IMG/VR virus record: IMGVR_UViG_3300026521_000161
Coordinates: 1 to 64,000 of that record
DNA from: a virus
DNA: 64,000 nucleotides
Direction: 5' to 3' (one strand)
Shown here: positions 1 through 18,663 of the stretch, in pieces
Layout: each line of letters opens with the position of its first letter
Numbering within the stretch: position 1 is the first letter of the stretch
Position numbers and translations under genes: made by a program
The notes under the pieces: generated by a model
The model's database searches: none
What the model saw: the letters and a program-made list of their open reading frames with translations, nothing else
What the model was told of the DNA's origin: nothing

Positions 1-225
1 TCGTTGAACTCACACACTCCATATAGGATGTATCTCTACGTTTAAGGTGCTTCGCTGCGTCGGTTGCCCAATCCTATAGAGTTTTTACTATGCCACACAC
101 TTCCATTACTGGGTGTGGTATTATACTATGTTTCCATGTATAAGTAGTATCTATAGGCTCTAAGGGGTTCCCCGCAATTAACTGAATTTTTTACTTAGTT
201 TTAAAACTAAGGAGGACCAAAATCA
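1..225 (-). mobile_element. Group I intron (5' part; runs off window start) in nvRNAP beta-N gene
   Basis: Exon end GGAGGAU pairs with GUCCUCC (P1 with U.G at splice site 226/225). P-like AAUUGCGGGGAAC, P5abc-type extension and R-like UUCAACGA are present. nt 17-65 are identical to 16969-17017 of the second intron. Confidence 0.9.
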
Positions 226-1659
226 ATCCTCCAGTATACTAGTGATTTTAAAATATAGACTGTCAGTGGTACTATCCACTGGACTAACTGCTATATTAGT
301 ACCACCATTACCACCTTTAATAAGTGAGTAAATCTTCTTAGAACTTAGATGTCTATTAAACAATCTAGATATCTCTTTCTCAGTCATTATCTTTCTAGAT
401 GATGTCCTCTTAAATTCTAAAAAGGCCTTATTAATACCTACTATAAGATCAAATAGGATATAATACAAAATCTCTATATATCTATTATCTAGATTACTAG
501 AGTACTTTTCATGGTTAACGACTAACTCATGAAAGTTTTCTATAACCCATGCTATAAGATCATAGAAATCTTCTATATCTATACCTGCCTCTTTAAGCTT
601 ATGCAATATGATAGTATCCATATAGCCGTTAAGTATGTCTATATGCTCGAACATATCTGCCTGAACCCTATCCATAGAGAACTTATTCTTGAAGACTATC
701 TTACCTAACATAGATACCCAGAATAATGATTCATCATCTATATCACCTTGTCCGAAGTAAGTATTTGGTTCTGTCTTCTTACCAGCTACTTTCTTTATGT
801 TCATAGCAAATTGTGGAGTCATATCGAAACTATATATAAGACTAGATACGACTATTTCTAGAAATGGCGTTATATCCTCTTTCTTAATAAGTATCTTGAT
901 ACTATGTGGTGCGTATGTATTGTTACTATTCTTGGAGAATAGATTTTTAGGACGCATACCTGTAGTTGTATATTCAACATACTCATCTCTATATTTATCT
1001 GTTTTGATATTTGGATCTGTGAATATGATAGGTGTTGTATTAAAATACTTTTTAAACACACCAAAGAACCCATGTTTTATGAACATATACAATGCTATAG
1101 GTATAACATCATTAACATTCTTTAATAGTTTATAAGATTTACTATGTATGATCTGTTTAGGCGTCTTAACGCCATTAACTAAGATGTTACGTTCCATTTT
1201 CTTCATATTTAGCTTATCTCTTAATAAACGTATAAATAACTCTCCTGGTGCTGGAGATATAGGATACTCACTTAACACAGGCACTATCGTGTAGTATGCG
1301 TCTGTTAAGCGTAATACACCACCTCTTTCTACGTACGGTAATGCTATGATTCTATTAACAGGTATGCCATTATATTCAAAACCAAACTCTACCTTAGTAA
1401 TATAGTTAGTAGATATATCAACTATATTTTTACTCATAGAGCTATTTATGTTATTGAAATAGTCTTCTTTAGGAGTTATCCTCCTAAAACCTTTATATGT
1501 TAATAAAGTATCTGATGGTAAAGTACTTATAGCGGACTTTATGATCGCATCTAGATGACTAGATATCTTACTAACATATTTGATCGACAACCCTTTCATT
1601 ATGTCTGGATCAAATTTAACGCCTTCTTTTTCTATAAACTTTTTAGTAACTATATTCAT
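226..1659 (-). CDS. Non-virion RNA polymerase beta subunit N-terminal part (phiKZ gp123-like), exon 1
   Basis: N-terminus and motifs resemble recalled gp123 homologs. Position follows DnaB/MCP/gp121/gp122-like genes. ORF stops immediately after the intron 5' splice site. Confidence 0.8.
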
Positions 1660-1706
1660 TCTTCCTCCTAATATGGATTACATATTATATAAACTATCGA
1701 AAATAA

Positions 1707-2753
1707 TTATTTAAAACTACCTAATAATTTAATAAACTCCTTAGCTGTACTTATCTCCTCTTTCTCTAGAGCTAGTAATGCAGCTTCCTCCCTGACAACG
1801 TAACTAAGTAACTTATGTAAAGATACATTATGTTCATAGATAAATTTCTCCATAACCATATTATTATCGAATTTCTCATTAAGAGAATTTATAAGTTCCT
1901 TTCTTTGCGCCTTAGCTTCTTCTTGAAATTCCTCGGTCTTCTCATCAACGCTGTTAACTAAGTAACCTTGTTCGGCTAAAACATTCCTCTTATACATACC
2001 TAACTGTTCACATTTACCCTCCTTATGTTTGTTAACTACCAATGAGTCTTCACTCATTAACTCGGTATCTATCTCTTCTGCATCACTATCATTCTTTAAA
2101 ACAATTTCATTACCAAAAACATTTATAGTTAAACTTTTACCGCTATAAGATGTAAAGTTAAATTCTATAGTCTCATTAGCTGTAAATATTTTACTCCTAT
2201 TTAAGTCACTACCTACTTCCTCTCTTGTTATTGGTTTATCCATACTAAACAACATACTATCCACATTAACAACCTTATTATCTTTAAGATCATCCTCATA
2301 TATGATATATGTTAACCTTATCCTTTCCTGTACACCGTATGACACATCACCTTCTTTAAAAGCTAATAGTTGATCTAATACTTTTTGTTTAACATCCCCG
2401 TGGTCAGTTGTATCTGAAAATAAATGTTTTATAACAAATGAATAATCTCCTTTATTCCTGAACTTAAAATCTAATGTTTTTATAACTATAACACACTTAT
2501 TAAACTCTCTAAGTTTAACTGGTATGTCTTTATTAATCGGTACCTGCATAGGTACAAAACTATCTGTCGTCCATATTTGTCTATTCTCTATATTAGTATA
2601 CATCCACGTCTTAACAGACGGTCGTCTGTATTCAATATCATTCTCTATAGAATTAGCTGTACCATAATCTAATGTATTAAAAATGGTATCTGATATTTTT
2701 CTTTCTTGGTCTAGTTTTACATTATCACTACGGTTTAAAACTTTAGTAACCAT
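1707..2753 (-). CDS. Hypothetical protein (syntenic with phiKZ gp122)
   Basis: 348-aa ORF with AAGGAG SD and early-type promoter motif upstream. Confidence 0.7.
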   Translation of the reverse strand: MVTKVLNRSDNVKLDQERKISDTIFNTLDYGTANSIENDIEYRRPSVKTWMYTNIENRQIWTTDSFVPMQVPINKDIPVKLREFNKCVIVIKTLDFKFRNKGDYSFVIKHLFSDTTDHGDVKQKVLDQLLAFKEGDVSYGVQERIRLTYIIYEDDLKDNKVVNVDSMLFSMDKPITREEVGSDLNRSKIFTANETIEFNFTSYSGKSLTINVFGNEIVLKNDSDAEEIDTELMSEDSLVVNKHKEGKCEQLGMYKRNVLAEQGYLVNSVDEKTEEFQEEAKAQRKELINSLNEKFDNNMVMEKFIYEHNVSLHKLLSYVVREEAALLALEKEEISTAKEFIKLLGSFK

Positions 2754-2783
2754 GGTACTCCTTTATATATTATAAATACTACA

Positions 2784-2793
2784 TTAATAATAT
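2784..2793 (-). promoter_or_regulatory. Putative early promoter ATATTATTAA
   Basis: One of 7 copies of ATATTATT(A/C)A upstream of minus-strand genes. Confidence 0.6.
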
Positions 2794-2812
2794 ATAGGTT
2801 AAAAAAGTTATA

Positions 2813-2840
2813 ACACAATAGAGCTTACGCCCTATTGTGT
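2813..2840 (-). terminator. Intrinsic terminator after capsid operon
   Basis: ACACAATAG..CTATTGTGT hairpin followed by T-run on minus strand. Confidence 0.6.
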
Positions 2841-3523
2841 TAGATTTTATAATATGTTTCTAATTTACCAACAATACCTTGTGGTAAGAAAGATCCCATT
2901 TTAGAAGCGATATGTGTTTTAGCAACTTCCTTTCTTGTGTTGGGATTAGCCATAGCTGAGATGAATTTAACTAACATAGTATAACCCATCTTAGTACTTG
3001 CACCAAATTTCCAGAAATGATCATATCTACTTAGAGCGATAGGGCTAAAGTATCTATCCTTTTCTACTAAGAACACCTTGTTGATAAGGTTCATTTGTTT
3101 TGTAGATGCTTTTCTATCTGGGTTGTTAAGAGCATTGATGATGATGTTATATAAGTTATAATTAGCGTTAGCGATTGTTTCGCCATTACCGCTAGTCTTA
3201 GTATAACATACCTCTACATAATGCTGTAGGCCTTTTGCAGTAGGAACAACTAAAGGATCTTTCATAGCGTCAGCGATAACATCGTCAAATGTTTTCTTAA
3301 CTTGTTTAGGTTCCTCTTTTTTAGGTTCAGTCTTAGAAGCTTCTTTTGGTTCTACCTTAGGCTCTTCTTTAACTTCTTCCTCTTTTTGCTCTACAACTGG
3401 TTCTTGTTGCGGTTGCTCGACCTCTACCTGTTGATCTTCTACGATAGGATCTTTTACTTCAGTAGCTTGCTGATCTACAACCGGTTCTTCTACTTTAGTT
3501 TGTTTTTTTCTTTGTTTAGCCAT
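2840..3523 (-). CDS. Hypothetical/virion-associated protein (gp121-like), E/K/P/Q-rich disordered N-terminus
   Basis: 227-aa ORF with SD directly downstream of MCP. Confidence 0.65.
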   Translation of the reverse strand: MAKQRKKQTKVEEPVVDQQATEVKDPIVEDQQVEVEQPQQEPVVEQKEEEVKEEPKVEPKEASKTEPKKEEPKQVKKTFDDVIADAMKDPLVVPTAKGLQHYVEVCYTKTSGNGETIANANYNLYNIIINALNNPDRKASTKQMNLINKVFLVEKDRYFSPIALSRYDHFWKFGASTKMGYTMLVKFISAMANPNTRKEVAKTHIASKMGSFLPQGIVGKLETYYKI

Positions 3524-3594
3524 AATGGACTCCTTCTTTTAAAATTTTAAAAAATAGATAGTATAGTAAGGAACTTAATCCTTACTATATATCA

Positions 3595-5721
3595 TTATGC
3601 ATCAGCAATAAGTTGCGTAATTTTACCACTTACTTCTTCAACACCAGTGATCTCTAATAGACCTAAGATAGGCATAAGAGTTTGATGTTTGTAACGAGGC
3701 ATAGAGATAGTTTCTTGTACTACCGTACCGTTCTCTTGTCTTTGGATAGAAATAACAGTTTCAGGAGACCAGAAACATACACCAAAACTTAATGGATCGC
3801 CCATTTTGTTTCTACTTGCACCCATGTTACCGAATGAGATAAACGTTTTACCAGCCATAAGAACATCGTTACTTGTAGCTACTTCATAGTTAAAGATCTC
3901 ATCTGAGAATGAACTTAAGTATAGACCGATGTCTGTATCAGTACCAATGATAACTGTTGGTTTAACACCAGGACGCACAGCTTCAAATGTTTTGTTATAA
4001 CCAGACTCTGTATAAAGTTTAAGAGCTGTGTTACGGATTTTAAGTTTAAGTGCAGCACGGATATCTGCTTCACGGTCACTTGAAGTTTCGCTATCTACGA
4101 TAGTAGCTAAATCTACAGTTTCTCTGTAAGATGCTTTTGATACAAGTCTGCTAGAGATACCGAAATCTTCTGTATCAATGCTTAAGTTTTCAAGTACTGT
4201 TAATGTACTGTTAAGTTCTAAAAGACCAGCTTTTGTAAGAGCTTGCTTGTTGAATTGGATTTGACCAAGTAAACCAGCAGTATCACCATCTTCGCCATCG
4301 TTGAATACAGCGGTAACTTCTCTAAGTTTGGCACGAACTGGTACAGTATAAACAGATGTATATGTATCAGTAGTTAACATACGACCACGGAATCTTGCAT
4401 TTGTATTTGTAGCATAAGCTTCAACATCAACACCTTCGATATCAGATGCAGCAAATAGCGTAGTTAAATCAGTTACAGTAGAGCTATCAGACGCTAATGC
4501 GTTTCCAGATGCATCAAGAACTTCAGCTAACTCAGTTTTAACAGGGAATACCTCGATAGAACCTTTTTGAGTATTAGCATCACCTTTAAGGTTAATTCTA
4601 ACTTTAACTGTATAACCTTCAGTTAGATCTTTAAGAACTTTGATCTCTGTTGGTGTACCATCAGCTTTAACAATTTTACCACCAGTCCATGTAATAGAAT
4701 CAGTTTTGTAATCAAGTTGTAGATCTTTGTTATGTCCAGTTGGAGTCATTGTGAATAACGCTGGAAGACCATTGATCTCACGTTTATGATACTCAGTGAT
4801 TTCATTGTCATCAGAGTCTTTACCTGTGATTTTGAAATATAAGCTTTCCACTGTTAAATGTGCAGTAAGTGCATCAGTATGATCCATAACACCACGATTG
4901 ATAAGTTCAGCAGTTTGAGCAGCACCAAGAAGATCTACTTCCATACGAGTTTTAATAGGAGCAGTTACAACTTCCACGCCTTCGAAAACTTCAACTGTTC
5001 TAGTAAGACCATTTACATCATCAGGGTTTAAAAGACGGTCTTCTGCATTTTCAAGTACTGGGTAAAGTCTATTTGAATCAAGAGTAAACAGTTTAGTGTT
5101 GTTAAGGTTCTTGATGATAGAATCTTTTTTAAGCTCGATTGGCTTACCAGATGGATCTCTTTTAACAGTTGACATAATACTTGCAACTTTTGCAGTAACA
5201 GTAGCACCAGTTAAGTTACTATCAATAACAACGATAGGATAGAAAAGGTTATTAACAGCATCTTGCTCGATAGTTAACGCATTGAAAACAATAGATGAGA
5301 ATAGTGATGCAGATACATCTTGACCATCGAAAGCTTCATTACCAACTGTAAGTTTGTTATCAGGAATGAAATCACCGATATATTTGCTAGTATCAACAAT
5401 GATTGATTCACCAGCAGCTTCAACATCTTGTCTACCTTTAGTAGCAATCTTGTTAAGTGTTCCAATAGGATCAACTGCATGTTTAGCAACAGCAGCAGCA
5501 GCAGCGATTTGATGTGGCGCGAATTCAACTGGAGTATCAGCGTCTAATGCGATTGCTTCAAAAGCAGCTTGTACGTCAGAAGCTAAAGCAGCAGCTTCAC
5601 TCTCGATAACAGGTTTAACTGCTGCATCGATACTTTCATTTCCTGCGATAAGTTTTGCGTGGTCAGCATTCACAGATACAGAATTCTTAAGACCACTCAT
5701 TAATTTTTGTAAAACATTCAT
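3595..5721 (-). CDS. Major capsid protein (phiKZ gp120-like)
   Basis: 708 aa, GNE|AFD maturation-like site after Ala-rich propeptide, strong codon bias, downstream terminator hairpin, DnaB-gp119-MCP synteny. Confidence 0.85.
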   Translation of the reverse strand: MNVLQKLMSGLKNSVSVNADHAKLIAGNESIDAAVKPVIESEAAALASDVQAAFEAIALDADTPVEFAPHQIAAAAAVAKHAVDPIGTLNKIATKGRQDVEAAGESIIVDTSKYIGDFIPDNKLTVGNEAFDGQDVSASLFSSIVFNALTIEQDAVNNLFYPIVVIDSNLTGATVTAKVASIMSTVKRDPSGKPIELKKDSIIKNLNNTKLFTLDSNRLYPVLENAEDRLLNPDDVNGLTRTVEVFEGVEVVTAPIKTRMEVDLLGAAQTAELINRGVMDHTDALTAHLTVESLYFKITGKDSDDNEITEYHKREINGLPALFTMTPTGHNKDLQLDYKTDSITWTGGKIVKADGTPTEIKVLKDLTEGYTVKVRINLKGDANTQKGSIEVFPVKTELAEVLDASGNALASDSSTVTDLTTLFAASDIEGVDVEAYATNTNARFRGRMLTTDTYTSVYTVPVRAKLREVTAVFNDGEDGDTAGLLGQIQFNKQALTKAGLLELNSTLTVLENLSIDTEDFGISSRLVSKASYRETVDLATIVDSETSSDREADIRAALKLKIRNTALKLYTESGYNKTFEAVRPGVKPTVIIGTDTDIGLYLSSFSDEIFNYEVATSNDVLMAGKTFISFGNMGASRNKMGDPLSFGVCFWSPETVISIQRQENGTVVQETISMPRYKHQTLMPILGLLEITGVEEVSGKITQLIADA

Positions 5722-5817
5722 ATTTTATCTCCTAAAATTTATATAACATCAAGTCATGAACCCAGTTAAGGGTTCCTAGATGTAATGCATGGGTTATATA
5801 ACCACTATCAGCGTTAG

Positions 5818-6456
5818 TTACGCTGGACTATGCATAGTTTTTATATAGGGCATCATATAACCCAAAAACTCTTTATCAATTTTCTTATTAAAATCAATAT
5901 TGCTAGCAATACCATTTATGTTTAAATACATACCATATAGGAGATTAAACATAGACTCTCCCTGACTACTACTAGTAATGACTTGTAGCGTCTCATTGTC
6001 TACCTTACAGACTAGGAATCCACCTAAGTCTAGTACATCATCTTTTGTTAAATCAGAATACCTATTTTTGAGGTCTAGCATGGTATTCTTTTTAACTTCA
6101 GTTAATATACTTTCATTTTTTCTCTTTTTACCTGTAACAGCACCATACACCTGCTCTATTTTTTTAGCTTTTTGTAAAATTGGATTATGATGTTGTTTCA
6201 ATCTAGGAGAAATTAGTGAACTTTTATTTATTACTGAATTTACGATATTACTATAATATATAATATCTTCTAATTCCTGCCTACTTACCTTATTATGTAG
6301 CATAGTTAAATGTAATTCTATTGTCTCATTTTCTATCACGTTGTTCTTTATGACTGTATCTAAATATAAATTAGTTAATAGTGTTTTGTCTAGTTTAACT
6401 AGATTAAAAACATTATCATTAACTATTAATACAGGTCTCATACCTGTCTGTTTCAT
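5818..6456 (-). CDS. Hypothetical protein (gp119 position)
   Basis: 212-aa ORF with AAGGAG SD. Confidence 0.65.
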   Translation of the reverse strand: MKQTGMRPVLIVNDNVFNLVKLDKTLLTNLYLDTVIKNNVIENETIELHLTMLHNKVSRQELEDIIYYSNIVNSVINKSSLISPRLKQHHNPILQKAKKIEQVYGAVTGKKRKNESILTEVKKNTMLDLKNRYSDLTKDDVLDLGGFLVCKVDNETLQVITSSSQGESMFNLLYGMYLNINGIASNIDFNKKIDKEFLGYMMPYIKTMHSPA

Positions 6457-6550
6457 TATGGCTCCTTATCTTTATAATTCAAGACATTTAGATTTATACG
6501 TAATAAATATAAGAGTATCTGTTATTTGAATATAAAATAAAGGAAGCACG

Positions 6551-8044
6551 ATGCACAAGTTAGAATTATTCATAAAAGCCTTAATATTAGCTATGGCCGA
6601 ATATAAACTAGAACAAAGAGTTAGTTCTAATGCTCTTATAGAGAAAGTTATAGAAACGCCAGATATAAGAGCTAATAAAGTAAAAACTTTTAACGATGAA
6701 AATGATATTATAGATAAATTAAAAACTTTAATAAAGTCTATACTAGACGGAACAACTAAACCAACACAAGACATCATGGTTTCTATAGAAATTATTCTAG
6801 CTGAAAAACAAAGCTTCATAAAGTTAATAGAGAAATATGTTTTTAAAAAAGAAACTAAACCCACTATAGACCTAATGAAAGAAGAGATAAGACAGGAGCT
6901 TAAAAGAGATGAAGCTAAAACAACTTTAAGTTTTGCATTATCTAGAATAATAAAACCTGGTGCTAATGTTGATAAAATACTAGATGAGACATCTGATACT
7001 ATAAATATCATAAAAGAACTAAAAGGTATGGCTGATGTTAGTTTAGTAGATGAGGTAGACTTCGACAATAGAGATAGTGTTTTAGCAGCTAATGCTAAAG
7101 CTAAAGAGTTAGTGTCTGGCGGTAAGTCGTTTAAAACAGGTTGGTCTAGTGTTAACAGAATGACGCAAGGTGGTCCTAGAAGAGGTGAGTTCGTTACCAT
7201 AAGTGCTTTAAGACATAATTATAAATCTAGTTTTATTAAATCATTATTTATGCAAATATTAAGACTTAATAAAGCTGATGTTAATACTGATGGTAAAAAA
7301 CCTATGTTCGTATTTATATCCCTAGAGGAAGAAGTTGATAACATTATGTTCTTCTTTTATGTGTATCTTAAATATGCTGTAGAGGGTATAGAGATTAAAG
7401 ATAGTGAACAGAAGAACCTTAACATAGAAGAGATGACGGATTATGTTATGAAACATGCGTTAGGTAATGGGTTTAGTGTTAGGGTATATAGATTCATACC
7501 AGAACTATTTACATACAGTAAATTATTTAACCTAATAGAGAAGTTAGAGAGACAAGGTTTCGAGATTTATGGTACGTTTTTAGATTACGTTAAAAAGATG
7601 AGTAGAGATGGTTGTAATAAGAATGGGCCTAGTGGTACAGATCTATTAGAGTTATTTAGTAGGTTAAGAGGTTTCTTTAGTTCTAAAAATATCTTATTCT
7701 TCACACCACACCAACTTAACACACAAGCCAACGCATTGATAAGAACAGGGTTACCTGCTGAGGAATTTGTTAAACACATCGCTGATAAAAACTATTATGC
7801 CGATAGTGCGCAGTTAGGGCAAGAGATAGACTTAGAGCTATTCTCCCATAAAGCTATAGTTAATAAACAAACTGTTTTATATGTTAGTAGAGGTAAACAT
7901 AGGTTACCTACCAATATACCAGAAGAAGATAAAATTACCGTACTTAAGTTCACTAGTAAAGTAGCGCCTATTCCGGAAGAGAATGAAATCCATAAAGATG
8001 TTGTTATGGAGGATGTTAATAGTAATGACGAATTTGATTTTTAA
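6551..8044 (+). CDS. dnaB: DnaB-like replicative helicase (phiKZ gp118-like)
   Basis: KTGW..GGPRRGEFVTISALRHNYKS (variant Walker A), ISLEEE, FLDY, TPHQL, RGKHR motifs. Confidence 0.85.
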   Translation: MHKLELFIKALILAMAEYKLEQRVSSNALIEKVIETPDIRANKVKTFNDENDIIDKLKTLIKSILDGTTKPTQDIMVSIEIILAEKQSFIKLIEKYVFKKETKPTIDLMKEEIRQELKRDEAKTTLSFALSRIIKPGANVDKILDETSDTINIIKELKGMADVSLVDEVDFDNRDSVLAANAKAKELVSGGKSFKTGWSSVNRMTQGGPRRGEFVTISALRHNYKSSFIKSLFMQILRLNKADVNTDGKKPMFVFISLEEEVDNIMFFFYVYLKYAVEGIEIKDSEQKNLNIEEMTDYVMKHALGNGFSVRVYRFIPELFTYSKLFNLIEKLERQGFEIYGTFLDYVKKMSRDGCNKNGPSGTDLLELFSRLRGFFSSKNILFFTPHQLNTQANALIRTGLPAEEFVKHIADKNYYADSAQLGQEIDLELFSHKAIVNKQTVLYVSRGKHRLPTNIPEEDKITVLKFTSKVAPIPEENEIHKDVVMEDVNSNDEFDF

Positions 8045-8046
8045 GT

Positions 8047-8070
8047 TATAGATACCGTAAGGTATCTATA
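8047..8070. terminator. Bidirectional terminator hairpin
   Basis: TATAGATACC-GTAA-GGTATCTATA between convergent genes. Confidence 0.65.
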
Positions 8071-8071
8071 A

Positions 8072-8959
8072 CTATACTTTTAATGTCTGGTATTTCCAAG
8101 CTGTTTCTGAACCATCTTCATATTCTACTTTTATAGCTAAAACATATTCATTTGTTCTATTAGTAGAAAATACTTCATTAGGTATAACTAGATTATACTC
8201 ATCAGTATCCCCTGTGAATACTTCTTTAGGATCACCATAACCCACTGCTAATAGCTTAACATACATACGATTAAAACTACTTATAGGAGCTATACTTAAA
8301 TTATAACCATCTACGATACTTGGTTCGTTTAAAACTGATTTAACAATGATATCAGGTATCTTTCTAACGTACACTATTTGTGAAGCAAAATCACTTGTAT
8401 CGTTACTAGTTGCTGTATGTGATACTTTTATAACGTATGGTCTACCCTCTTCTAACTTAACATCACCTATTAACTTACTAGTTAGATTTTCCTTATCCAC
8501 TAATTTAGTGTAAACTGGATTACCTAACATATCTTCTATAATATAGGAAGTATATTCATGACTAGCATTTGATGTCGTGTTTATATCATTTGTCTTAATA
8601 GTAAACATAGTAGAAGGGAAATTCATAACGTCAAAATCTAATGTTATAGTTGGTTTCATAACTACTGAAGGTATAGCATGGTTAAAAGCTACCTTAATAA
8701 AATCAGTTGGCTTTAAGATATCTGTTTTAGACCACTCAAAAATAGCCCTATCACAGACAACCCTTGCTCTACTATAATATGTTTTATCTGTATCTAAATC
8801 AACATCAAATATAATAGATGTTAAGTTAACCTCATCATCCCTAGATGATGCTACTATGTCTTCTTCTTTAAATAACGGGGATGTAGCTATCTCCCAGTCA
8901 GTTGTTTCGTGTACATACTTCTTAGGTAAATCTGGTTTAGGTATGAACAATATAGTCAT
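8072..8959 (-). CDS. Putative virion protein with tandem Fn3/Ig-like repeats
   Basis: Repeated H..T(D/S)(W/Y).I......IV....D..NLTS motif. Confidence 0.55.
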   Translation of the reverse strand: MTILFIPKPDLPKKYVHETTDWEIATSPLFKEEDIVASSRDDEVNLTSIIFDVDLDTDKTYYSRARVVCDRAIFEWSKTDILKPTDFIKVAFNHAIPSVVMKPTITLDFDVMNFPSTMFTIKTNDINTTSNASHEYTSYIIEDMLGNPVYTKLVDKENLTSKLIGDVKLEEGRPYVIKVSHTATSNDTSDFASQIVYVRKIPDIIVKSVLNEPSIVDGYNLSIAPISSFNRMYVKLLAVGYGDPKEVFTGDTDEYNLVIPNEVFSTNRTNEYVLAIKVEYEDGSETAWKYQTLKV

Positions 8960-9048
8960 CTGGACTCCTTATAAATTCTATTTCAAGCTATGTTGCGGTA
9001 GACGGTAAAAAAGATATATAGAGACCGATATGGTCTCTATATACAAGA

Positions 9049-9876: not shown

Positions 9877-9886
9877 GGGAAATCCT

Positions 9887-10387
9887 TTAAATGTTTTCTA
9901 ATGTATAATCTAAACCACCGACAGTTTCTTCGTCTAGAACAAAGTATGAAACAGTAGCTGTCCCATTCACTGTCTCGTCGTTTAAACTACACTTCAAACT
10001 ATCTAATGTAAAATCTACATCATCGTAGAAACTATATGTATTGTCAGAATTTTTTACAACTATTAAATTATTTATAAAAATAGATGATCCCATGAAGTAT
10101 GGTTTACTAGTTATATAAAAGACACCATTCTTAACATCACATCTCTCTGTAACTGGATGAAAAACTATACTAGGCGTTACTTTAATACCTTCCTCTATGA
10201 TGTTATTTAATAATGAAACAACTCTGTTACATTGTAACTTAGCGTCGAAATATTGGATAAGACCTTTTATACTAAAACTACCTGTTGCCGCTATCGCCTC
10301 ATTAAGTTTAATAATGTCCTCTGATGTAAAATACCCCTTAACTTCTGTGACAACTTCTTTTGTACCACATATATCAATAGTCTCCAT
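9887..10387 (-). CDS. Hypothetical protein; C-terminal beta-domain resembles C-terminus of neighbouring fibre-like ORF
   Basis: 166-aa ORF with SD. Confidence 0.55.
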   Translation of the reverse strand: METIDICGTKEVVTEVKGYFTSEDIIKLNEAIAATGSFSIKGLIQYFDAKLQCNRVVSLLNNIIEEGIKVTPSIVFHPVTERCDVKNGVFYITSKPYFMGSSIFINNLIVVKNSDNTYSFYDDVDFTLDSLKCSLNDETVNGTATVSYFVLDEETVGGLDYTLENI

Positions 10388-10447
10388 GTGTATCCTTTAT
10401 GTTAAATTTCAAAAAAAGAAAACCATACTAGTAACGTATATACGTTA

Positions 10448-13400
10448 CTAGATGAATTCCCTATATTCGATAGACTTAATATTTTTAGCTCTCTTCCTGA
10501 ATAACTTCATTCTGTTATGGTTATATGTTTTATGTTGTCTTATATCAGACGACCATATATAAACAAAATCCATCTTCTTACCTTTTAAATCTCTAAGTCT
10601 ACCTAATGTCTGCAAGTTAGCTTGCACGCTATCGACATTAACAGTTTGTATAACTGTTACTAGGTTAGGAATATCTAATGCGGTACCGGCACTTTGTAAC
10701 GTACTAATAATAATATCGGACTTCTCTATAACATCGTAACCATCCTCCTCTGTATACTTACTGATATTAAGTTTAAGTTTTGTTCTTAAATAATCAGCCA
10801 TCATCACACACATTTTAACTGTACCCATGAATATCATAAGCTTATCATCTTTAGCTCTTTTCTTAACATAGAAACCTAATGTTAAACCATATATCATCTT
10901 TAGATAATTATTTAGTATCCTTCTATTTTTTATAATAGAATTCTCTAACATTGGCTGGTTGTATCCGAAGTTGTTTTTAAACCTTATAAGCTTTCTCTGC
11001 ATGAATCTAAACCTAACAGATGTTATGTATATATAAGGTTTATACTTAACTATATTAGAAGCTCTATTACTCTCCGGGAACATGATGTGGTACATCTTAT
11101 CTAGTTCTTTATCTTTAGTAACTAATGTAGCTGTAATACCTATAAATAACTTTATATTACTAAACAACATAGTCTTATAAACATTAAAGAACTCTTGATG
11201 TGTTTCATCATTAAGAACTATTTCTGTACCTAGTGCATCGAATAAGTCATCTGGTGATAGATCTGTATACTCCGTTAATTCACCAGTTAGATATCTCTTA
11301 ACTAAGTAATTCAACGTTGTTAACGATATGATGAAACATTTATATCTCTTAGCTAATTCTTCATTGTGCATGAGGTTAACAAGATTTGTTAAACCTTTAA
11401 CTATACATATCTCATCTCTCTTTATATCTGTGAGAGTTGTTATGTCATCTACCCATTTATCTATGTATCTAGGTAAAACTATCATAGAGAATGTTTTATT
11501 TATTCTGGACATAGATGCCATGGATATGAACGTGTTGTGTGTTACTATATAATCTTTAACAACAAAGAGTTTATCTTTATTATCCACAGATATACATACG
11601 GCTTCCTCTTTTACAGATTTCTCTATAGAAACTATACGTAGTTTAAGATTATGACTATATTGGTTCTTATCCTTTAATCTATCTCTACGTTTAGGTAATG
11701 TTACTATATCTCTAGGGTTTTTGACACGTATATGTAGTCTATACGATAGCCTACCACGTTTCTTCTCTCCTTTATGTGTATAGTATGTATATCTAGTACC
11801 TACGCTACACATTCCTCCAAGACTCCTAACTAATAACTGTACGTCTTTAGCTAACTGTTCACTAGTAGTACTATAAGAGGCCCCGCCATTTATACCTACT
11901 TCTCCATCTGTATCCATTAAACCACGTAATAGTTCGTATCTCTGTTCTAACGATCCCTCCATGTATTCTTCCGGTATGAACTTAGACCACGCGCGCTTAT
12001 CATATAGACCATATTCCCTAAGAGCTTCGCGCATATCTATATCGGGTTTATTACGTAGGTCTTGAAAAAGTATGGAGAATGTTTTAAAGTCCTTTTTTCT
12101 ACGTATTTTGTAACCTTCATTAATGAACTTACCAACTCTATTAAAAACGTGATCAGAAACATTAGTTATCTCTAGTGCTGGCATATGTCCATCCCCTAAA
12201 AGAGCACCCATAACATATGGATGTATCTTAAGATACATAGGTTCTTTATCCATAGGCTCTGGTAGATCTATATAATACCGACTACCATCTTTCTTACCCT
12301 TAACTGTATCTAGATAGTTCATGATATCTTCGGTAGTTAATACCTTAGCACTCATGTTTTTACCGATCGTATCAAAATTAGTTAGTTTAGGTAATTCATC
12401 TTCTATATCCATGATAGTATCTACATATATATCAACAGCTATAAAATCTGTACCTGGTACTTTATCGATATGTGCTATACCCATAAGACTTTCCACTAAC
12501 GCCACTATCTGTTTAGCATATGCTAATGTATCACAAATGATCCTAGGACCACCATTACCTTTTATAATACCATCTAGTAAATCTTTACGTTGCTTAGGTA
12601 AGCCAGAAAGATATCTACCTGGTATAAAGAAACCATTATTATCCGGACCTAGTTTAAGTAGGTTAAGCTGTCTCATGATAGCGTGTTTTTGTATCTTTTC
12701 ATTAACATGCTTTATATATAAAACACCATCATTAACTTCTGTATAGAATATGTCCCTTAAGCCATTGTTAATCTTATTTATATCATATCCAGAGAGGTTA
12801 GGTATATCTAAAACAACATTGGCTTGCTTACTACCTATCATTAGACCTAATAGAAATGGATCTATTATATAGTTACGGTATTTATAATTTTTAACACTTC
12901 TTTTAGTGAACAGATAAGAATGCACTGTCCATAAGTGATCTAGACCTGCCTCTATTGTTCTACCGTCCGAAAATGTTACTTTATATAATTGCATTATACC
13001 TTGCGGATATACGCCAGTAACCGTTGTCTCTAACCCATCCCTTCCTATAACTTTTTCGCCCCTTCTAACGTCTCCTATACGCTTCCAGCCATGCTTTAGA
13101 CGTATAGGTGTATCACAGCTTATCATCTTCCCGTAACCTGTGAAAAGATCGATGAGCACGTTATGTTTGTTGAATTCAGTTATCTTTTGTATATAGGTCT
13201 CTTGATAATCCCTTGGTATATAATTGGGATTAAGTTCTATATTTACATCGTTACCAATGATAGGTTTAAAAGCTTCTACGCGTATGTTATCTTTTTCTAT
13301 TCCCATATTCTGTAAGAAAGTTGTGAGGCTATCTAATAACGTTATAGGGTAACGTAGTTGATCCTGTTTAACATTATATCCCTCTTCTCTTGTCTCTGTT

Positions 13401-13579
13401 ATATAGAAATGTTTATCTGGTTTAGTTACTACTTGTGGTTTTCTACTATTATTAACTTTCATTAACGCTATCTTGTGTGTTATAAGTGATTTATTAAAAT
13501 CATATAGTGTATGTAAAAGCTTACTATAGTTATCACTCGTAACAGTGAAATACTGACTATACTTCTTGATGAAAATCAT
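10448..13579 (-). CDS. SF2 (UvsW/DExH-like) helicase, phiKZ gp75-like, intein-containing
   Basis: PRDYQ Q-motif, TGYGK|T Walker A split by intein, DETH, TAT, QTLGRLR. Confidence 0.85.
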   Translation of the reverse strand: MIFIKKYSQYFTVTSDNYSKLLHTLYDFNKSLITHKIALMKVNNSRKPQVVTKPDKHFYITETREEGYNVKQDQLRYPITLLDSLTTFLQNMGIEKDNIRVEAFKPIIGNDVNIELNPNYIPRDYQETYIQKITEFNKHNVLIDLFTGYGKMISCDTPIRLKHGWKRIGDVRRGEKVIGRDGLETTVTGVYPQGIMQLYKVTFSDGRTIEAGLDHLWTVHSYLFTKRSVKNYKYRNYIIDPFLLGLMIGSKQANVVLDIPNLSGYDINKINNGLRDIFYTEVNDGVLYIKHVNEKIQKHAIMRQLNLLKLGPDNNGFFIPGRYLSGLPKQRKDLLDGIIKGNGGPRIICDTLAYAKQIVALVESLMGIAHIDKVPGTDFIAVDIYVDTIMDIEDELPKLTNFDTIGKNMSAKVLTTEDIMNYLDTVKGKKDGSRYYIDLPEPMDKEPMYLKIHPYVMGALLGDGHMPALEITNVSDHVFNRVGKFINEGYKIRRKKDFKTFSILFQDLRNKPDIDMREALREYGLYDKRAWSKFIPEEYMEGSLEQRYELLRGLMDTDGEVGINGGASYSTTSEQLAKDVQLLVRSLGGMCSVGTRYTYYTHKGEKKRGRLSYRLHIRVKNPRDIVTLPKRRDRLKDKNQYSHNLKLRIVSIEKSVKEEAVCISVDNKDKLFVVKDYIVTHNTFISMASMSRINKTFSMIVLPRYIDKWVDDITTLTDIKRDEICIVKGLTNLVNLMHNEELAKRYKCFIISLTTLNYLVKRYLTGELTEYTDLSPDDLFDALGTEIVLNDETHQEFFNVYKTMLFSNIKLFIGITATLVTKDKELDKMYHIMFPESNRASNIVKYKPYIYITSVRFRFMQRKLIRFKNNFGYNQPMLENSIIKNRRILNNYLKMIYGLTLGFYVKKRAKDDKLMIFMGTVKMCVMMADYLRTKLKLNISKYTEEDGYDVIEKSDIIISTLQSAGTALDIPNLVTVIQTVNVDSVQANLQTLGRLRDLKGKKMDFVYIWSSDIRQHKTYNHNRMKLFRKRAKNIKSIEYREFI
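11534..13126 (-). mobile_element. Class-3 intein (531 aa, Met1) with degenerate plus intact LAGLIDADG endonuclease modules
   Basis: GK|MISCDTP...HLW...AVCISVD...IVTHN|T; GALLGDG and RGLMDTDG motifs. Confidence 0.88.
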
Positions 13580-13719
13580 AACGCCTCCTTTTCTTTCTAA
13601 TTTAAATCAGGTTGTGGAATTTCCTACTACCTAGTGTTTAACACGGTTTTCTCCTTTTTTTATAAATATTAAAAACATGAACACCATACAGAGGATAATA
13701 CCTCTGTATGATATTGCTT

Positions 13720-15735
13720 TTACTTGTTCTTTGATTTATAATCTTCAATAGCCTCATTTGGACAGAAGAATACATCCATAGGTGTACTACATTTGTTTTC
13801 TTTCACATGCGTAACAGGTGATAACGTTTTACCTAATAAGTTATCCCAGTTGAAAGATGCTCCTACTGATCTATAATCTATAACTTCTCTAAAAGCAACT
13901 ACATCTCTACTTTTAGCGTTTCTACCTAAGTCAAAGTTTCTGTTAGTAAGATCTTGAACTGTGAACGCATATGTAAGTACTTCTAATAACGCTATGTTAA
14001 CATTAAGCTTATTGTTTATAAGCTCAAATAGATTTTGTACTAAAACATGTGGACCAAATTCTGACTTGTATCTACCATTAACATTTTTATACTTACGTGT
14101 CTTGAGCATAGATTTAAACTCTTTAATAAGTGCTGCAAAATCGAACTCTACTTTTTCATAAATAAACACAGGTCTCTTGTTATCAAAGTTGTTGATATCC
14201 ACCATATAGTATTCTTCATCTAGAGTACTATAACCATTCTTGATGATGTGTGAGAGCATGTCTATGGAGAATACAGCTCTTCTTGTAGCATACTTAAGAT
14301 TAAGCTCTATCTCTACTGATTCTTTCTTAGATTCTATAACTAAGATAACCGATGACAATCTAGATACCTTATTGATGTTAATGGAGAATATATCTTTAAC
14401 ATTCATGATGTTATCTATACCCCATGCTTCTCTCTGTTTGAACTTAAGATAGATATTCTTAATCTTCTTACCTAGGACACCAGCTTTAAATAGCAGTTTT
14501 TCATTGTTGCGTACTAACATAAACTTAGATACAGATGGATCGAGTTTAATGCTTGCCGTAACTGCTGATGTTAATAGGTGTTTAGTAGATAGTAGGGCTT
14601 GCGACATACCTGCTGAACCAGATGTCGATGTTATATGTCCTAAGTTCTGGTGGTCTAATATAGAATCAGCTATCTCACCTATACAAGCTGAACATATAGA
14701 ATGTTTATCTGGTAAACCACAATATACAGCCATACGTAATTGTATGTATTCACCTACTAAATGTTCCTCGGTACCATCTATGATACGCTCTACATTATCT
14801 TTAAACTTATAGCGTTTACCTATAAGATTAGTTAGATCTCCTTTTCTCTCTAATTCACCATTACCATTATATTCATCTGGCCTAACATAGAAATCCACAT
14901 AAGTAGGTTTCCCACAATCTCCTCTATGAACATTTTCTATAGTCATAGTAGCTAACTGTAACTCTCTAGCCATATACTCAGCATCTTGAATAGCTTTACT
15001 AGAAAGATACATAGCTTTAGCACCTGCTCTAGATTCTATAGCTGCATCATAGATACCCTTAAACCCTAGTGTGAAACTGTTAGACATAGGTATAGTGAAT
15101 ATCTTACTATCCATCTCTGTTACGAAACCACGCGGTCCTAATAACTGGCGCATCTGTCCTATAGAAACCATCTTAGATCTATATAGTAAACTAACTGGGT
15201 TATTGTTAAACTTTGGTAGTTTCATAACTTCATCTAACACATTATACGCCTCGTCTATAGAGACTTTACTATTTTTAATGCTTACATTATGAATAGCTTC
15301 CATAAGCTTTGGTTCGAATTGTATATCTAATATGTCTAGTAATGAACTACCTATAGCATAATGTGCTACTTCAGCTACTAAGTATTTGTTAACTAAATCT
15401 ATACTAACGTACATATTTTTAAATAGCTTTAGTTTACTGGAGTTAGACATATATCTATCTGATGATTTAGCTACTTTCCTAAATACTAAACTATATATAG
15501 ATAGATACGTTCCATTAGTAAATAAACCGTTTACTAAGTGTTTCTCTACCCATAGGTCTGATGTTAGTTCTACTTTACTACTTTTATAGAAGTTAAGCAG
15601 GTATCTAAAAAGTATGATATGTTTATAAAACGCATGTATAACCACACCATCTTCAAAAACTATATCTATGTTCTTTCTTAGACCTAAAATAGTTTTTAGG
15701 TCTACCTGCATGATCTTACTAATAGGTATTTGCAT
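13720..15735 (-). CDS. Non-virion RNA polymerase beta' C-terminal subunit (phiKZ gp74-like)
   Basis: QLLGPRG, ESRAGAKA bridge-helix region, GDCG, C..IC..CIG Zn site, SQALLSTKH trigger-loop-like motif. Confidence 0.85.
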   Translation of the reverse strand: MQIPISKIMQVDLKTILGLRKNIDIVFEDGVVIHAFYKHIILFRYLLNFYKSSKVELTSDLWVEKHLVNGLFTNGTYLSIYSLVFRKVAKSSDRYMSNSSKLKLFKNMYVSIDLVNKYLVAEVAHYAIGSSLLDILDIQFEPKLMEAIHNVSIKNSKVSIDEAYNVLDEVMKLPKFNNNPVSLLYRSKMVSIGQMRQLLGPRGFVTEMDSKIFTIPMSNSFTLGFKGIYDAAIESRAGAKAMYLSSKAIQDAEYMARELQLATMTIENVHRGDCGKPTYVDFYVRPDEYNGNGELERKGDLTNLIGKRYKFKDNVERIIDGTEEHLVGEYIQLRMAVYCGLPDKHSICSACIGEIADSILDHQNLGHITSTSGSAGMSQALLSTKHLLTSAVTASIKLDPSVSKFMLVRNNEKLLFKAGVLGKKIKNIYLKFKQREAWGIDNIMNVKDIFSININKVSRLSSVILVIESKKESVEIELNLKYATRRAVFSIDMLSHIIKNGYSTLDEEYYMVDINNFDNKRPVFIYEKVEFDFAALIKEFKSMLKTRKYKNVNGRYKSEFGPHVLVQNLFELINNKLNVNIALLEVLTYAFTVQDLTNRNFDLGRNAKSRDVVAFREVIDYRSVGASFNWDNLLGKTLSPVTHVKENKCSTPMDVFFCPNEAIEDYKSKNK

Positions 15736-15737
15736 CT

Positions 15738-16751
15738 TTACTCCTTATCTTCTGCTAGATCTGATTCATCTACATCACTGATATTAGTTATATCTGTGAT
15801 ATATTCCTCAACACTGTTTTCCTCGTACTCGTACTCTGATTGGGTTTCAGGCACATATTCTAATTCCATACCTATAGAATTCCATAATGATGTTAATATA
15901 GTCAACCCACGTTCTCTACCATATGGCGTCACTGATCTATCTATAATAGTATCTATAGATGTTGGTGTGCCATTAGTTAATAATTTACTATACACTTCCT
16001 CATGTGACTCTATAGACGTATTAAGATCTTTTAACTCAGCTAAGAACTCTCTACCACCATAGGCAGCGAATATACGTCCCTCTGTTTCACCTTGTGTTCT
16101 AACAGGACTATTCTTAGCAGGTAACCTATATCTATCATTTTTGCTTGTAACGATAGGTATACCAAAATGATTTAATTTAGCAGAACTAGTAGTTAATACT
16201 GTATCAGCTATCTTACTTAACATAAAGATATACATAGGCGCTATCATAACTGGATCTTCCGAAGTACGCGGCCTACCATCATATGTAAATTTTACCTTAT
16301 CGTAAACTGGTTTATAAATAGATTTATCTAAATCCTTTATAATCTCATACTTACGTTTTTCATTATCGGTAGTTAGGTAAGCTCTAAATCTATCATATAT
16401 GATCTCCTCTACTACAGATAGCATAGACTCTCTATCATTATTGTGTAGTATACCGTTATAAACATCAAACATACCATTACCTAATATACCCATGAAATCC
16501 CTAGCATGCAGGAATAGATTTTTAAGCTGTACATCTGTTAACTCATATGGTTCCGTTACATTATACCTTTTATATTCGTCTCTTACAATGCGCTCTAACT
16601 TCAGCATAGATGCTTTAGTAGTAGCTTCATAAGGACCACCTATATTAAGCCTAGATATAGTAGATTTCGGATCCACTATCATCTCCGCTCTATTACCGTC
16701 TTTATCGATAGGCATCTCTTCATCAGGCCATACCGATACAATTGTACCTTT
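15738..16751 (-). CDS. nvRNAP beta C-terminal subunit (phiKZ gp71-73-like), exon 2
   Basis: In-frame KGTIVSVWPDEEMP..DG..AEMIVDP.STISRLNIG and GETEGR; starts after intron terminal G. Confidence 0.88.
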   Translation of the reverse strand, partial: KGTIVSVWPDEEMPIDKDGNRAEMIVDPKSTISRLNIGGPYEATTKASMLKLERIVRDEYKRYNVTEPYELTDVQLKNLFLHARDFMGILGNGMFDVYNGILHNNDRESMLSVVEEIIYDRFRAYLTTDNEKRKYEIIKDLDKSIYKPVYDKVKFTYDGRPRTSEDPVMIAPMYIFMLSKIADTVLTTSSAKLNHFGIPIVTSKNDRYRLPAKNSPVRTQGETEGRIFAAYGGREFLAELKDLNTSIESHEEVYSKLLTNGTPTSIDTIIDRSVTPYGRERGLTILTSLWNSIGMELEYVPETQSEYEYEENSVEEYITDITNISDVDESDLAEDKE

Positions 16752-18663
16752 CGAATATGTTCAAGTGGCTCGCTACACCACCCCGCGTCTCTAAACGCTG
16801 CTCACTCTCTCGAATGAAGACTTGGTCGATTACCAAGAATGACTTTCGTCGTCCAGACTATATCTAATCCCTTATTACTAAGGGCCGAAACATTTCCATT
16901 TAAGGGATTTTATACCCACCTGCTTAGGCCGTACTCCCTGGTGAGGGGATAGTCGTTGAGCCCACACGCTCCATATAGGATGTATCTCTACGTTTAAGGT
17001 GCTTCGCTGCGTCGGTTACCTAATCTCATAAGGTTTTTACTATGCTTAACTCTTCCATTACTGGGTTAAGTATCATAGTCTGTTTCCAGCTATGAGTAGT
17101 ACTTATGAGCTCTAAAGGCGTCCCCGTCATTAGTATCGTTCTAAGTTATAAGATTACTCCTATAACTGGCTTACATAATATTCCATTACATTAATCTATC
17201 TGTATAATCTTCAGGCTTCGCATCTCCTGGAAGATTAAGATCTTTCTTCATATCTTCAAAAGTCTGATACGACTTTCCATTATATGTGTATTTATAAAAC
17301 TCACGTAATATTTTACGTAGTTCACCTTCTATACTCTGAAACTTTGTGTTATGTAGTATATTTAATCTAACTTTCATCTTCTTAGCTATCTCTGCTTTTT
17401 GAGCATCGTTAGTCTGTACTTCTTTAAGTAGGTCATTACCGCCCCATGCCTTAATAGGAATGTAGTGTTGGTTACCATTGTACTCTATGAAGATGTTAAG
17501 TCTGTTAAGATAGAAGTCATACTTGTATTTGTAATCTTTGATACCGTATTCTCTTTCATGCTCTATACCGAATTTATTAAGAACACGCTCTATCTCTTTC
17601 TCATTCTTAGACCCAGCACATAGTAAACAACCCCTACCTCTAAGATGCTCGTTAGCAACTTGCTGGAAATCCCCATGAACAGGACACCCTATAGTTACTG
17701 TATCCAATGTTGTTCTAAATGATACTTTACTATAATCATATCTGTTGTTATGTATTTCATTAGCTTTAGATATGAACTCCGATACATCTGTCCTACGATT
17801 ATCGTTATAACATTTACTACAACCTCTACCCTCTAGATGTCCATCCAGCCTCTGCTCGAATTCACCATGTATAGGACAAATAATAGTACCCTTATGAGCA
17901 ACACTCTTGAATATAAGTTTACTATAATCGTACTTGTTGTTATGTACCTTATTAGCCCTCTCTATAAATCCATCTCTACCCATACTAGTGTTATTGGCAG
18001 CTTTATCTCTACCGCACCTAGCACAACCGAACCCTGCTAAATGACTACTAGGTAATTGTTTAAAATCACCATGGACTGGACACGTTATGATAACGTGTTT
18101 GGTAACACCTTTATAATCTGTTTTACCATAGCTATACTTTTTACCGTGTTTGGCCTCAGCTTCCCTAATAAAATCTTCAGTAGTTCTTTTAGGTCCAGCT
18201 GAACATTTAGGACATCCCTGTCCAATTAGATGCTTGTCTGGTCTCTTATCAAAATCACCGTGTATAGGACACCCTATCACAACAGCTGTTCTATTGTTAA
18301 TATAGTTAACTTTAGAATAATCATATTTATCGCCATGGATTTTACGAGCTTTAGCTACGAACTTATCTGCGTTAGATGATATACTACTATGTGCTTTCTT
18401 TTTACCGCATTCTGGACAACCACTACCCTTAAGAAAATTATTTGGTGTTGGGTAAAAGCTACCGTGGATGGGGCATATAACTTCTATGTCTTCTTTACTA
18501 CCTTTGTATACGACTTTACTGAAATCGTATTTGGTACCTAACCTTCTGGCTTTCTCTAAAAACGTTTCTGTTGTTAACGCTTTAGCCATTTCATATCCTT
18601 TTGTTTTATTTGCGAATTTGTGTTTGTAATTGGAATATCAGTCTTTACCTACCGGTAAATCAC
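16752..18663 (-). mobile_element. Group I intron (1912 nt) with homing endonuclease in P1 loop
   Basis: Splicing GGU|...G|AAA restores MGG-KGTIV. R (CAACGACUA) and S (AGAUAUAGUCU) elements present. GUAA-capped P2. Confidence 0.92.
17186..18589 (-). CDS. Intron-encoded homing endonuclease: five CPxHG...GCxxC zinc-ribbon repeats (DUF723-like) plus C-terminal PD-(D/E)xK/Vsr-like nuclease
   Basis: 5 repeats of YDYSKV..CP(I/V)HG..H..G.GC..C; YDFYL....IFIEYNGNQHY. Confidence 0.82.
   Translation of the reverse strand: MAKALTTETFLEKARRLGTKYDFSKVVYKGSKEDIEVICPIHGSFYPTPNNFLKGSGCPECGKKKAHSSISSNADKFVAKARKIHGDKYDYSKVNYINNRTAVVIGCPIHGDFDKRPDKHLIGQGCPKCSAGPKRTTEDFIREAEAKHGKKYSYGKTDYKGVTKHVIITCPVHGDFKQLPSSHLAGFGCARCGRDKAANNTSMGRDGFIERANKVHNNKYDYSKLIFKSVAHKGTIICPIHGEFEQRLDGHLEGRGCSKCYNDNRRTDVSEFISKANEIHNNRYDYSKVSFRTTLDTVTIGCPVHGDFQQVANEHLRGRGCLLCAGSKNEKEIERVLNKFGIEHEREYGIKDYKYKYDFYLNRLNIFIEYNGNQHYIPIKAWGGNDLLKEVQTNDAQKAEIAKKMKVRLNILHNTKFQSIEGELRKILREFYKYTYNGKSYQTFEDMKKDLNLPGDAKPEDYTDRLM

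Follow-up and report, generated by a model that had tools for sequence, protein, structure and literature searches.

The genes for both halves of the split beta subunit of the non-virion RNA polymerase (nvRNAP) of an uncultivated phage are interrupted by two elements that are predicted to be group I introns. The elements are located in a 64,000-nucleotide (nt) stretch of viral DNA, referred to below as the window, which comprises the first 64 kb of the 106,141-nt IMG/VR contig IMGVR_UViG_3300026521_000161 (estimated to be 42% complete), with window position 1 being base 1 of the contig. They are named copy A (1..225, minus strand) and copy B (16752..18663, minus strand); the label C is used for a copy at the contig end, and D for a copy at contig 93.2-95.0 kb. 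A and B are probably two copies of a mobile group I intron family that inhabits a clade of phiKZ-like jumbo phages of the nucleus-forming type. Within this family they do not appear to be exclusive sisters, and its copies seem to exchange modules with one another.

The beta-N gene is represented by a gp123-like 5' exon (226..1659, minus strand) of 478 codons, which ends in ..KITSILED. The corresponding open reading frame (ORF), 223-1677, matches phrog_2943 (positions 7-450 of 535, E 2e-68) as well as phiKZ gp123 (PDB 7ogp_E, PHIKZ123; E 7e-12), the beta-N piece of the phiKZ nvRNAP (PMC4666361). Across 203 phages, one match to the gp123-like ORF was obtained per genome. The 3' exon of this gene lies off the contig start. 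It is expected to comprise about 85-100 codons, and gp123-like homologues without an intron continue for at least 83 codons past the A site. The beta-C gene resembles gp71-73 and is present with both exons. Its 5' exon (18664..19875, minus strand) ends in ..NLMGG and matches PDB 7ogp_C residues 14-393 (E 1e-44) and phrog_3295 positions 9-403, while its 3' exon (15738..16751, minus strand) starts with KGTIVSVWPDEEMPID and matches PDB 7ogp_C residues 393-699 (E 3e-28), phrog_3295 positions 404-695 and Pfam RNA_pol_Rpb2_6. The two exons are thus continuous, running from phrog_3295 position 403 to 404 and from PDB 7ogp_C residue 393 to 393. Joining 18664 to 16751 keeps the frame and yields MGG|KGT (..NLMGGKGTIV..), with NLMGGKGTIVSVWPDEEMPIDK as the predicted junction peptide. 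An earlier note on this DNA had placed introns in both halves of the split nvRNAP beta subunit; the phrog and PDB matches of the exons to phiKZ gp123 and gp71-73 make this placement correct.

Copy B is a predicted intron of 1912 nt. Its 5' splice site lies after U18664, and its terminal G at 16752 precedes AAA GGU at the 3' splice site. Helix P1 is formed by exon UGGU (18664-18667) and the internal guide sequence (IGS) GCCA (17167-17170), and contains the pair U18664.G17170. GCCA is the only guide that offers a U.G pair for the exon end GGUGGU, and it sits directly 5' of P2 (17145-17166), the position that the IGS also occupies in A, D and the related locus L005. The core consists of P3 (17133-17138 with 16886-16891), P4 to P6 (16950-17132), P7 (GACUAU with AUAGUC, 16856-16861) and P8 (16868-16885), followed by P9 hairpins. 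The P1 loop is closed by a 10-bp helix of UGAUAUUCCA (18631-18640) and UGGAAUAUUA (17176-17185). UUACA/UGUAA was considered as an extension of this helix and was rejected, as the two are not nested.

Because GCCA at 17167-17170 is the guide of B, the ORF at 17186..18589 (minus strand) sits in the P1 loop. It encodes a putative intron-encoded endonuclease of 467 amino acids (aa) with five zinc-ribbon (DUF723-type) repeats, and it has its own AAAGGAU ribosome-binding site. The protein matches phrog_559 'HNH endonuclease' (E 2e-114) and Pfam DUF723 (E 4e-17). The C-terminal 140 aa gave no credible Pfam domain.

Copy A is the 5' part of a second predicted intron. It comprises the 3' strand of P1 with the IGS GUCCUCC (211-217), the P2 hairpin (194-210), the 5' strand of P3 (181-186), and P4-P5abc-P6 together with the start of P7 (1-180). 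No ORF occurs within the visible 225 nt. The exon ends in CUGGAGGAU and is followed by an in-frame UGA at the splice site and, 8 nt further on, by GUCCUCC. In P1, exon GGAGGAU (226-232) pairs with GUCCUCC over 7 bp, with U226.G217 at the splice site. P1 differs by compensatory changes between A and the intron in L006 (one change, exon G/IGS C vs A/U), and likewise between B and that in L005. A profile of the family matches A in nhmmer with E 2e-51. As a partial sequence, in which only the 5' strands of P3 and P7 are present, A gave no Rfam match, and its missing 3' half was not recovered when IMG/VR and, twice, the JGI metagenome contigs were scanned, where records of the window's own genome may have been absent.

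The assignment to group I is carried by the covariation of the core. Two exact-pattern scans of IMG/VR gave nine related loci, and P4 to P7 were aligned for 12 sequences (A, B and ten further members). In this alignment the paired cells amount to 98.4%, and changes on both sides occur in 23 of 43 pairs, a result equalled by none of 500 shuffles. When the 3' partner was slid by 1-3 columns as a control, at most 46% of cells remained paired. A second alignment of 13 sequences, consisting of B and 12 relatives and including two phiKZ introns, gave 95.3% paired cells and double changes in 31 of 43 pairs (0/500 shuffles equal it). Here, P3 covaries in 6/6 pairs and P8 in 5/5. P7 (GACUAU/AUAGUC) is an invariant 6-bp helix in B and the 12 relatives; it is 100% paired and crosses P3, which constitutes the group I pseudoknot. 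Furthermore, the conserved sequence elements of group I introns can be recognised in A, B and D, namely P (AAUUGCGGGG), Q (GACGCAGC), R (GUUCAACGACUA) and S (AGAUAUAGUC). In a local search of 600 nt, the Rfam covariance model RF00028 aligned to B over model positions 1-253 with 34.6 bits (E 3.9e-7). The same model gave 68.3 bits on copy D and 87.6 bits on the phiKZ counterpart of B, and the shortfall in the score of B coincides with a P5abc insertion of about 90 nt. Judged by the covariation of their cores, and for B also by the local covariance-model match, both elements are group I introns, as the earlier note had proposed.

In all cases, a GAAA tetraloop caps the P5b hairpin, and the pairs that close the loop covary (within 16950-17132 and 1-180). 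P6 contains CCUUAAAC...UAUGG, which we take to resemble the 11-nt GAAA receptor. The P5b loop and P6 may be clamped together as tetraloop and receptor, in the manner of the Tetrahymena P4-P6 domain, a suggestion that is offered as a lead only.

A BLAST search of the contig with 16955-17135 matched 3-180 with 83% identity (E 3e-48) and returned two further copies outside the window. Alignable homology extends over 1-186 and 16950-17138 (minus strand), with 83% identity over 178 nt. The P1/P2 parts (187-225 and 17139-17185) are not alignable, as would be the case for parts with different 'addresses'. No exact match exceeds the block of 49 nt (window 17-65 = 16969-17017, minus strand), which contains the 3' strand of P4, P6, P6a and the P6b hairpin GUA-GAGA-UAC. 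The three stems of the P5 extension differ between the copies and are fully complementary in both, namely P5a with CCUAUAG/CUAUAGG in A vs CUCAUAA/UUAUGAG in B, P5b with UUAUAC/GUAUAA vs UCAUAG/CUAUGA, and P5c with CCACAC/GUGUGG vs CUUAAC/GUUAAG. The homology, the exact block and the compensatory stem changes that the earlier note had quoted were all recovered by BLAST and pairwise alignment. Its statement that the guides differ and that each matches its own exon also holds, with 7 bp at GGAGGAU in A and only 4 bp at UGGU in B.

By module, A and B are 76% identical in P4-P5abc, where the best match of A is L007 (84%), and 95% identical in P4'-P6-P7, where B is the best match of A. Among the 12 aligned members, P6b GUA-GAGA-UAC is present only in A and B; elsewhere in the family this hairpin reads CAC/GUG, GAC/GUC, AGC/GCU or AGU/ACU. 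The A/B type of P6b module was not found elsewhere in scans of IMG/VR and JGI metagenome contigs. Within the identical block, 23 of the 49 bases are invariant across the family.

The family profile detects four copies in the contig (A, B, C and D). C interrupts the large terminase gene (phrog_2). Its best P1 candidate has only 4 bp, two of them wobbles, and does not fix the 5' splice site. D (contig 93150-95000; L004, L016) interrupts a RecJ-like DHH exonuclease gene within motif I (DYDVD|G), and its P1 loop contains an HNH/NUMOD1 ORF of 439 aa. A fifth candidate near contig 100.7-101.1 kb, with P-like and R-like motifs, was rejected, as it matched neither Rfam nor the family profile. In the core that these introns share, the identity of A is 83% with B, 84% with L006, 85% with L007 and 83% with L010a. 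A and C are 100% identical over 127 nt that extend to the contig's final base, and their P1, P2 and P3 5' strands differ. Since the P3 5' strands are different (UUCAGU vs AACUCC), A and C must diverge again at P3', which fits an assembly that breaks at both places. The earlier note had regarded A and B as sisters. This status is not upheld as stated, given that the contig has four copies, that A and the terminase copy are identical over 127 nt and that A is no closer to B than to L007 and L006.

The contig starts and ends in inverted copies of one intron family, its last 127 nt (106015-106141, L003:1502-1628) being the exact reverse complement of window 60-186. It evidently breaks at both ends because both ends fall inside repeated intron copies, A and C.

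Both insertion sites are known to be occupied outside this contig. The B site (beta-C GG|KG) holds family members in L005, in L012/L013 and probably in L007. The A site is occupied in L006 by a complete, ORF-free member of 470 nt between the exons ..KITSIFKD and QSQGDGVK... The exon-2 candidate of L006 had no match in PHROGs, and BLASTP to an uninterrupted relative settled the identity of the exon. In L011 the A site is empty and reads ..KITSVLLD|QSNGVGVK... In the gp123-like gene of L011, a member of the family is inserted 27 codons upstream of the A site (L011:5138-7333 = L009), which represents a second target in the same gene. The gp123-like gene is uninterrupted in the genome G003 (569 codons) and in Ralstonia phage FLC4-11C (560 codons). 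As related introns occupy both sites in other phages, a direct jump between the beta halves within this genome is not required. Overall, the family has at least seven sites in five kinds of gene, namely beta-N, beta-C, terminase, RecJ-like and DNA polymerase genes, with two members in tandem in a DNA polymerase gene (L010:1469-2420). The number of copies per related contig ranges from 1, in an 83%-complete genome, up to at least 5-7 in G002 (IMGVR_UViG_3300028534_000016, 138 kb), the contig whose DNA polymerase gene has the tandem pair. In the adjacent loci L012:521-3172 and L013:1-1787 (IMGVR_UViG_3300028534_000022), two complete cores flank an endonuclease ORF between the beta-C exons. This arrangement looks like tandem introns at GG|KG that are split by a few exon bases, or like nested introns.

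Mosaicism is evident in several members of the family. The identity between D and L008 is 100% in the P6 module and 54% in P5abc (best-split Fisher p 1.5e-6 over 44 splits). L018 and L019, two distant introns of G002, have an identical P4-P5abc of 120 nt; with L013 they share P5a-b, but not P5c. L006, L010a, L012 and L013, all from one sample, share an AGC-GAGA-GCU P6b regardless of their insertion site. Recombination between copies in one genome is the explanation proposed for these shared modules; for A and B it is probable, not proven, and the 49 nt themselves are only suggestive of conversion. A more far-reaching proposal is made tentatively, with less than even confidence. One family may have spread to at least seven sites in essential genes of five kinds, with P4-P6/P5abc retained and 'address' cassettes of P1 guide, P2 and P3 swapped, while copies within a genome were homogenised by gene conversion (A = C; L018 = L019; A/B P6b). 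The clade would then have kept a natural trace of group I introns transposing to new sites in protein-coding genes. If true, this would provide circumstantial evidence for the ectopic spread of group I introns in protein-coding genes. According to reviews, ectopic spread has so far been best documented only in rDNA (PMC3984707).

Splicing and homing, as well as the direction and timing of the exchanges, we infer from sequence, and the following course of events is proposed. Each intron would fold into the standard group I core with the P3/P7 pseudoknot, the P4-P6 domain and P8. Its own guide would then pair with the last bases of the 5' exon, GUCCUCC with GGAGGAU in A and GCCA with UGGU in B, which would place a U.G pair at the cut. 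Removal is expected to proceed by two guanosine-dependent transesterifications, and ligation would restore ..MGG|KGT.. in beta-C and presumably ..ILED|Q.. in beta-N. The endonuclease ORF in the P1 loop of B may drive homing into empty alleles. Copies in one genome would swap modules the size of helices, giving rise to the 49-nt P6 block of A and B and to the identity of A and the terminase intron over at least 127 nt.

Other explanations of the two elements have to be weighed against this proposal. Under a strict reading of the earlier note, one intron was copied from one beta-half gene to the other within this genome, and A and B would be mutually closest. Such copying would account for A being the best core match of B (83%), for the exact 49-nt block and the P6b GUA-GAGA-UAC that were found nowhere else searched, and for guides that differ and yet each fit their own exon. 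It is nevertheless improbable, as A is identical to terminase copy C over 127 nt, the P5abc of A is nearer to L007, L006 and L010a (80-84%) than to that of B (76%), and P2 of B resembles that of D rather than that of A. In addition, the B site is ancient, being occupied in phiKZ, L005 and L012/13, and L006 has an intron at the A site. These orthologous introns at both sites in other contigs would instead suit an independent colonisation, with separate invasions from an intron pool of co-infecting phages and a shared block that reflects core conservation alone. The 23 family-invariant bases among the 49 and the weak breakpoint test between A and B point in the same direction. However, the other 26 bases include P6b, which varies in a compensatory manner in every other lineage yet does not differ between A and B. 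Within one genome, different introns can have the same module (A = C, L018 = L019), and copy number varies strongly among genomes, from 1 up to 5-7; both observations also speak against it, so that independent colonisation by itself is a serious contender but an unlikely one.

Two further explanations concern the function of the elements. If they were decayed relics, the beta genes would be truly split and their pieces translated separately, with no splicing taking place. Split RNA polymerase subunits are normal in these phages, PHROGs contains the 'half-gene' families phrog_18919 and phrog_23982, and the long-read transcriptome of phiKZ discussed below is in line with this idea. It is scarcely credible in view of the core helices: compensatory changes maintain all of them, and 95-98% of cells are paired, which argues for selection on the RNA fold. 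Moreover, the break lies inside the conserved GG|KG, and the 3' piece has neither a start codon nor a ribosome-binding site, its first ATG being 12 codons in (16715). In phiKZ, gp71-73 is a single polypeptide, a 74-kDa chain, in the purified nvRNAP and in PDB 7ogp (PMC4666361). The earlier note had further suggested that splicing gates late transcription at two points. The introns would then be regulatory checkpoints, and nvRNAP, and hence middle and late transcription, would be made only when splicing is efficient. Indeed, neither beta half would be produced without splicing, phiKZ uses nvRNAP for middle and late transcription (PMC4666361), and T4 intron splicing is reported, in work cited in PMC10914365, to depend on the growth state. 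The same family also occurs in terminase, RecJ-like and DNA polymerase genes, however, and the A site is empty in close relatives, which makes a checkpoint role very unlikely. The spread over unrelated essential genes and the presence of empty alleles fit selfish elements that target conserved motifs, and not a conserved regulatory device. No regulation of late transcription follows from the introns by themselves.

The reading of A and B as module-exchanging copies of a mobile family has to contend with several opposing observations. A is incomplete and is without P3', P7', P8, P9, the terminal G and the 3' exon, since the window begins at contig base 1 and everything 3' of the first P7 strand is cut off. 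Contig 1-186 lies in a repeat that is also present in copy C, so part of it could have been misassigned by the assembler. P1 of B has just 4 bp and is too short for significance alone. Its 34.6 bits are below the Rfam gathering threshold (50 bits), and Rfam scans of the whole window miss B; a scan at the gathering threshold and one at E up to 10 on 20 kb returned no intron. A 29-kb multi-locus Rfam scan also missed copy D with its 68.3 bits. Scans of small windows recover the introns, and the misses of the large scans are therefore attributed to filter insensitivity rather than to absence. The long-read transcriptome of phiKZ yielded no spliced reads for its predicted introns (PMC10914365). 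Lastly, a breakpoint test of the maximum chi-square type between A and B gave p 0.03-0.09 uncorrected, which is not significant after correction, and conversion between A and B is therefore not claimed as shown. The earlier note had proposed that one ribozyme lineage was retargeted to a second site in this genome or homogenised by conversion. The occupation of at least seven sites by the family and a significant module exchange in other pairs bear out a part of this proposal. For A and B themselves the breakpoint test is weak, and the only specific sign of conversion is the P6b hairpin variant, which was found in no other sequence searched.

The genes in the first 24 kb of the window lie on the minus strand. 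A megablast search of 20 kb against known phages gave no match, which indicates that there is no close cultured relative at the DNA level. For the RNA polymerase pieces, identity to their counterparts in PhiPA3, 201phi2-1, RSL2 and similar phages is 30-34%. These similarities mark the source as an uncultivated, AT-rich jumbo phage that is related to the phiKZ-like ones. Directly downstream of beta-C lies a gp74-like nvRNAP beta'-C gene (13720..15735, minus strand; PDB 7ogp_D, E 5e-40), and the gene order beta-C, gp74-like, helicase equals the gp71-72-73-74-75 synteny of the phiKZ gene map. The helicase gene downstream of the RNA polymerase genes (10448-13579, minus strand) contains an intein-like insert with Pfam Hom_end_hint and LAGLIDADG_3 matches.

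The polymerase-gene introns predicted in phiKZ two decades ago would, according to the preferred reading, belong to a wider and still active family in uncultivated jumbo phages of the nucleus-forming type. The beta-N (gp123-like), terminase and RecJ-like genes are added to its list of targets. For annotation, the family explains 'split' or 'fragment' calls of RNA polymerase, terminase and RecJ genes, as well as assembly breaks at intron repeats. Surveys of jumbo phages probably under-call group I introns with large insertions, as Rfam cmscan at default or permissive thresholds on 20-64 kb misses all of those described here. The at least 13 natural variants provide a structure that includes a P5abc-type extension and is validated by covariation. 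As naturally occurring chimeras, they also lend themselves to studying interchangeable group I modules and the acquisition of new target sites. As an example from nature of group I introns that are retargeted and exchange modules, the family adds modest interest.

The closest known system is the phiKZ gp72 intron in beta-C (PHIKZ071/PHIKZ073). B is its positional counterpart, with the same insertion point within GG|KG, ..GGU GGU|AAR GGN... PHIKZ071 ends in ..CAU GGU GGU and is followed by the PHIKZ072 ORF, the core and a 3' exon that starts with AAG GGC. This layout of 5' splice site, endonuclease ORF, core and 3' exon is the same as in B, and so are the neighbouring genes (gp74-like and helicase). 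P4, P6, P7, P3' and P8 are homologous in the two introns, and the 3' tail UGAACAUA..CG| is common to both. The phiKZ intron has a short P5, whereas B has a P5a/b/c three-way extension of about 110 nt with an invariant GAAA loop on P5b. The host exons have about 30% protein identity. The statement in the earlier note that phiKZ-like phages have introns in nvRNAP genes is correct (PMC10914365, PMC11620839), and B stands at the gp72 site itself. The introns of phiKZ gp56, gp72 and gp179 are cited in PMC10914365 as having been predicted long ago. Those of gp56 and gp72 (L014:2213-2473, 17432-17700; NC_004629) align with each other and with the contig family; phiKZ therefore likewise has two related introns of one family in two nvRNAP genes. 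The second site is beta'-N (gp56) in phiKZ and beta-N (gp123) here. Among the gp123-like matches across 203 phages, no gp123 intron is annotated in cultured phages.

The PhiPA3 gp210 intron is also a group I intron with an HNH-type endonuclease, and it lies within a conserved catalytic motif of the virion RNA polymerase beta subunit of a chimallivirus (PMC11620839). It was shown experimentally to act in the competition between co-infecting phages (Birkholz et al. 2024, PMC11620839). It differs from A and B in that it interrupts a gene of another polymerase, the virion enzyme, at another site (after the DD motif). T4 (td/nrdB/sunY) and Twort are further phages with multi-intron genomes. Domain shuffling between T4 introns was reportedly observed by Bryk and Belfort in 1990. 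The multi-intron genomes of Bastillevirinae also contain several related group I introns in different essential genes, and their core, endonuclease and host gene evolve independently (PMC11878797). The set of host genes in T4, Twort and Bastillevirinae is different from the RNA polymerase subunit, terminase and RecJ-like genes found here. Compared with these multi-intron phages, the exchange can be seen here in nature as cassettes the size of a helix, one module being 100% identical and the other 54%. In light of the precedents in phiKZ, PhiPA3 and the multi-intron phages, the kind of element is already known. A and B are a well-documented new example of it, not a new mechanism, and the difference lies in the P5a/b/c extension.

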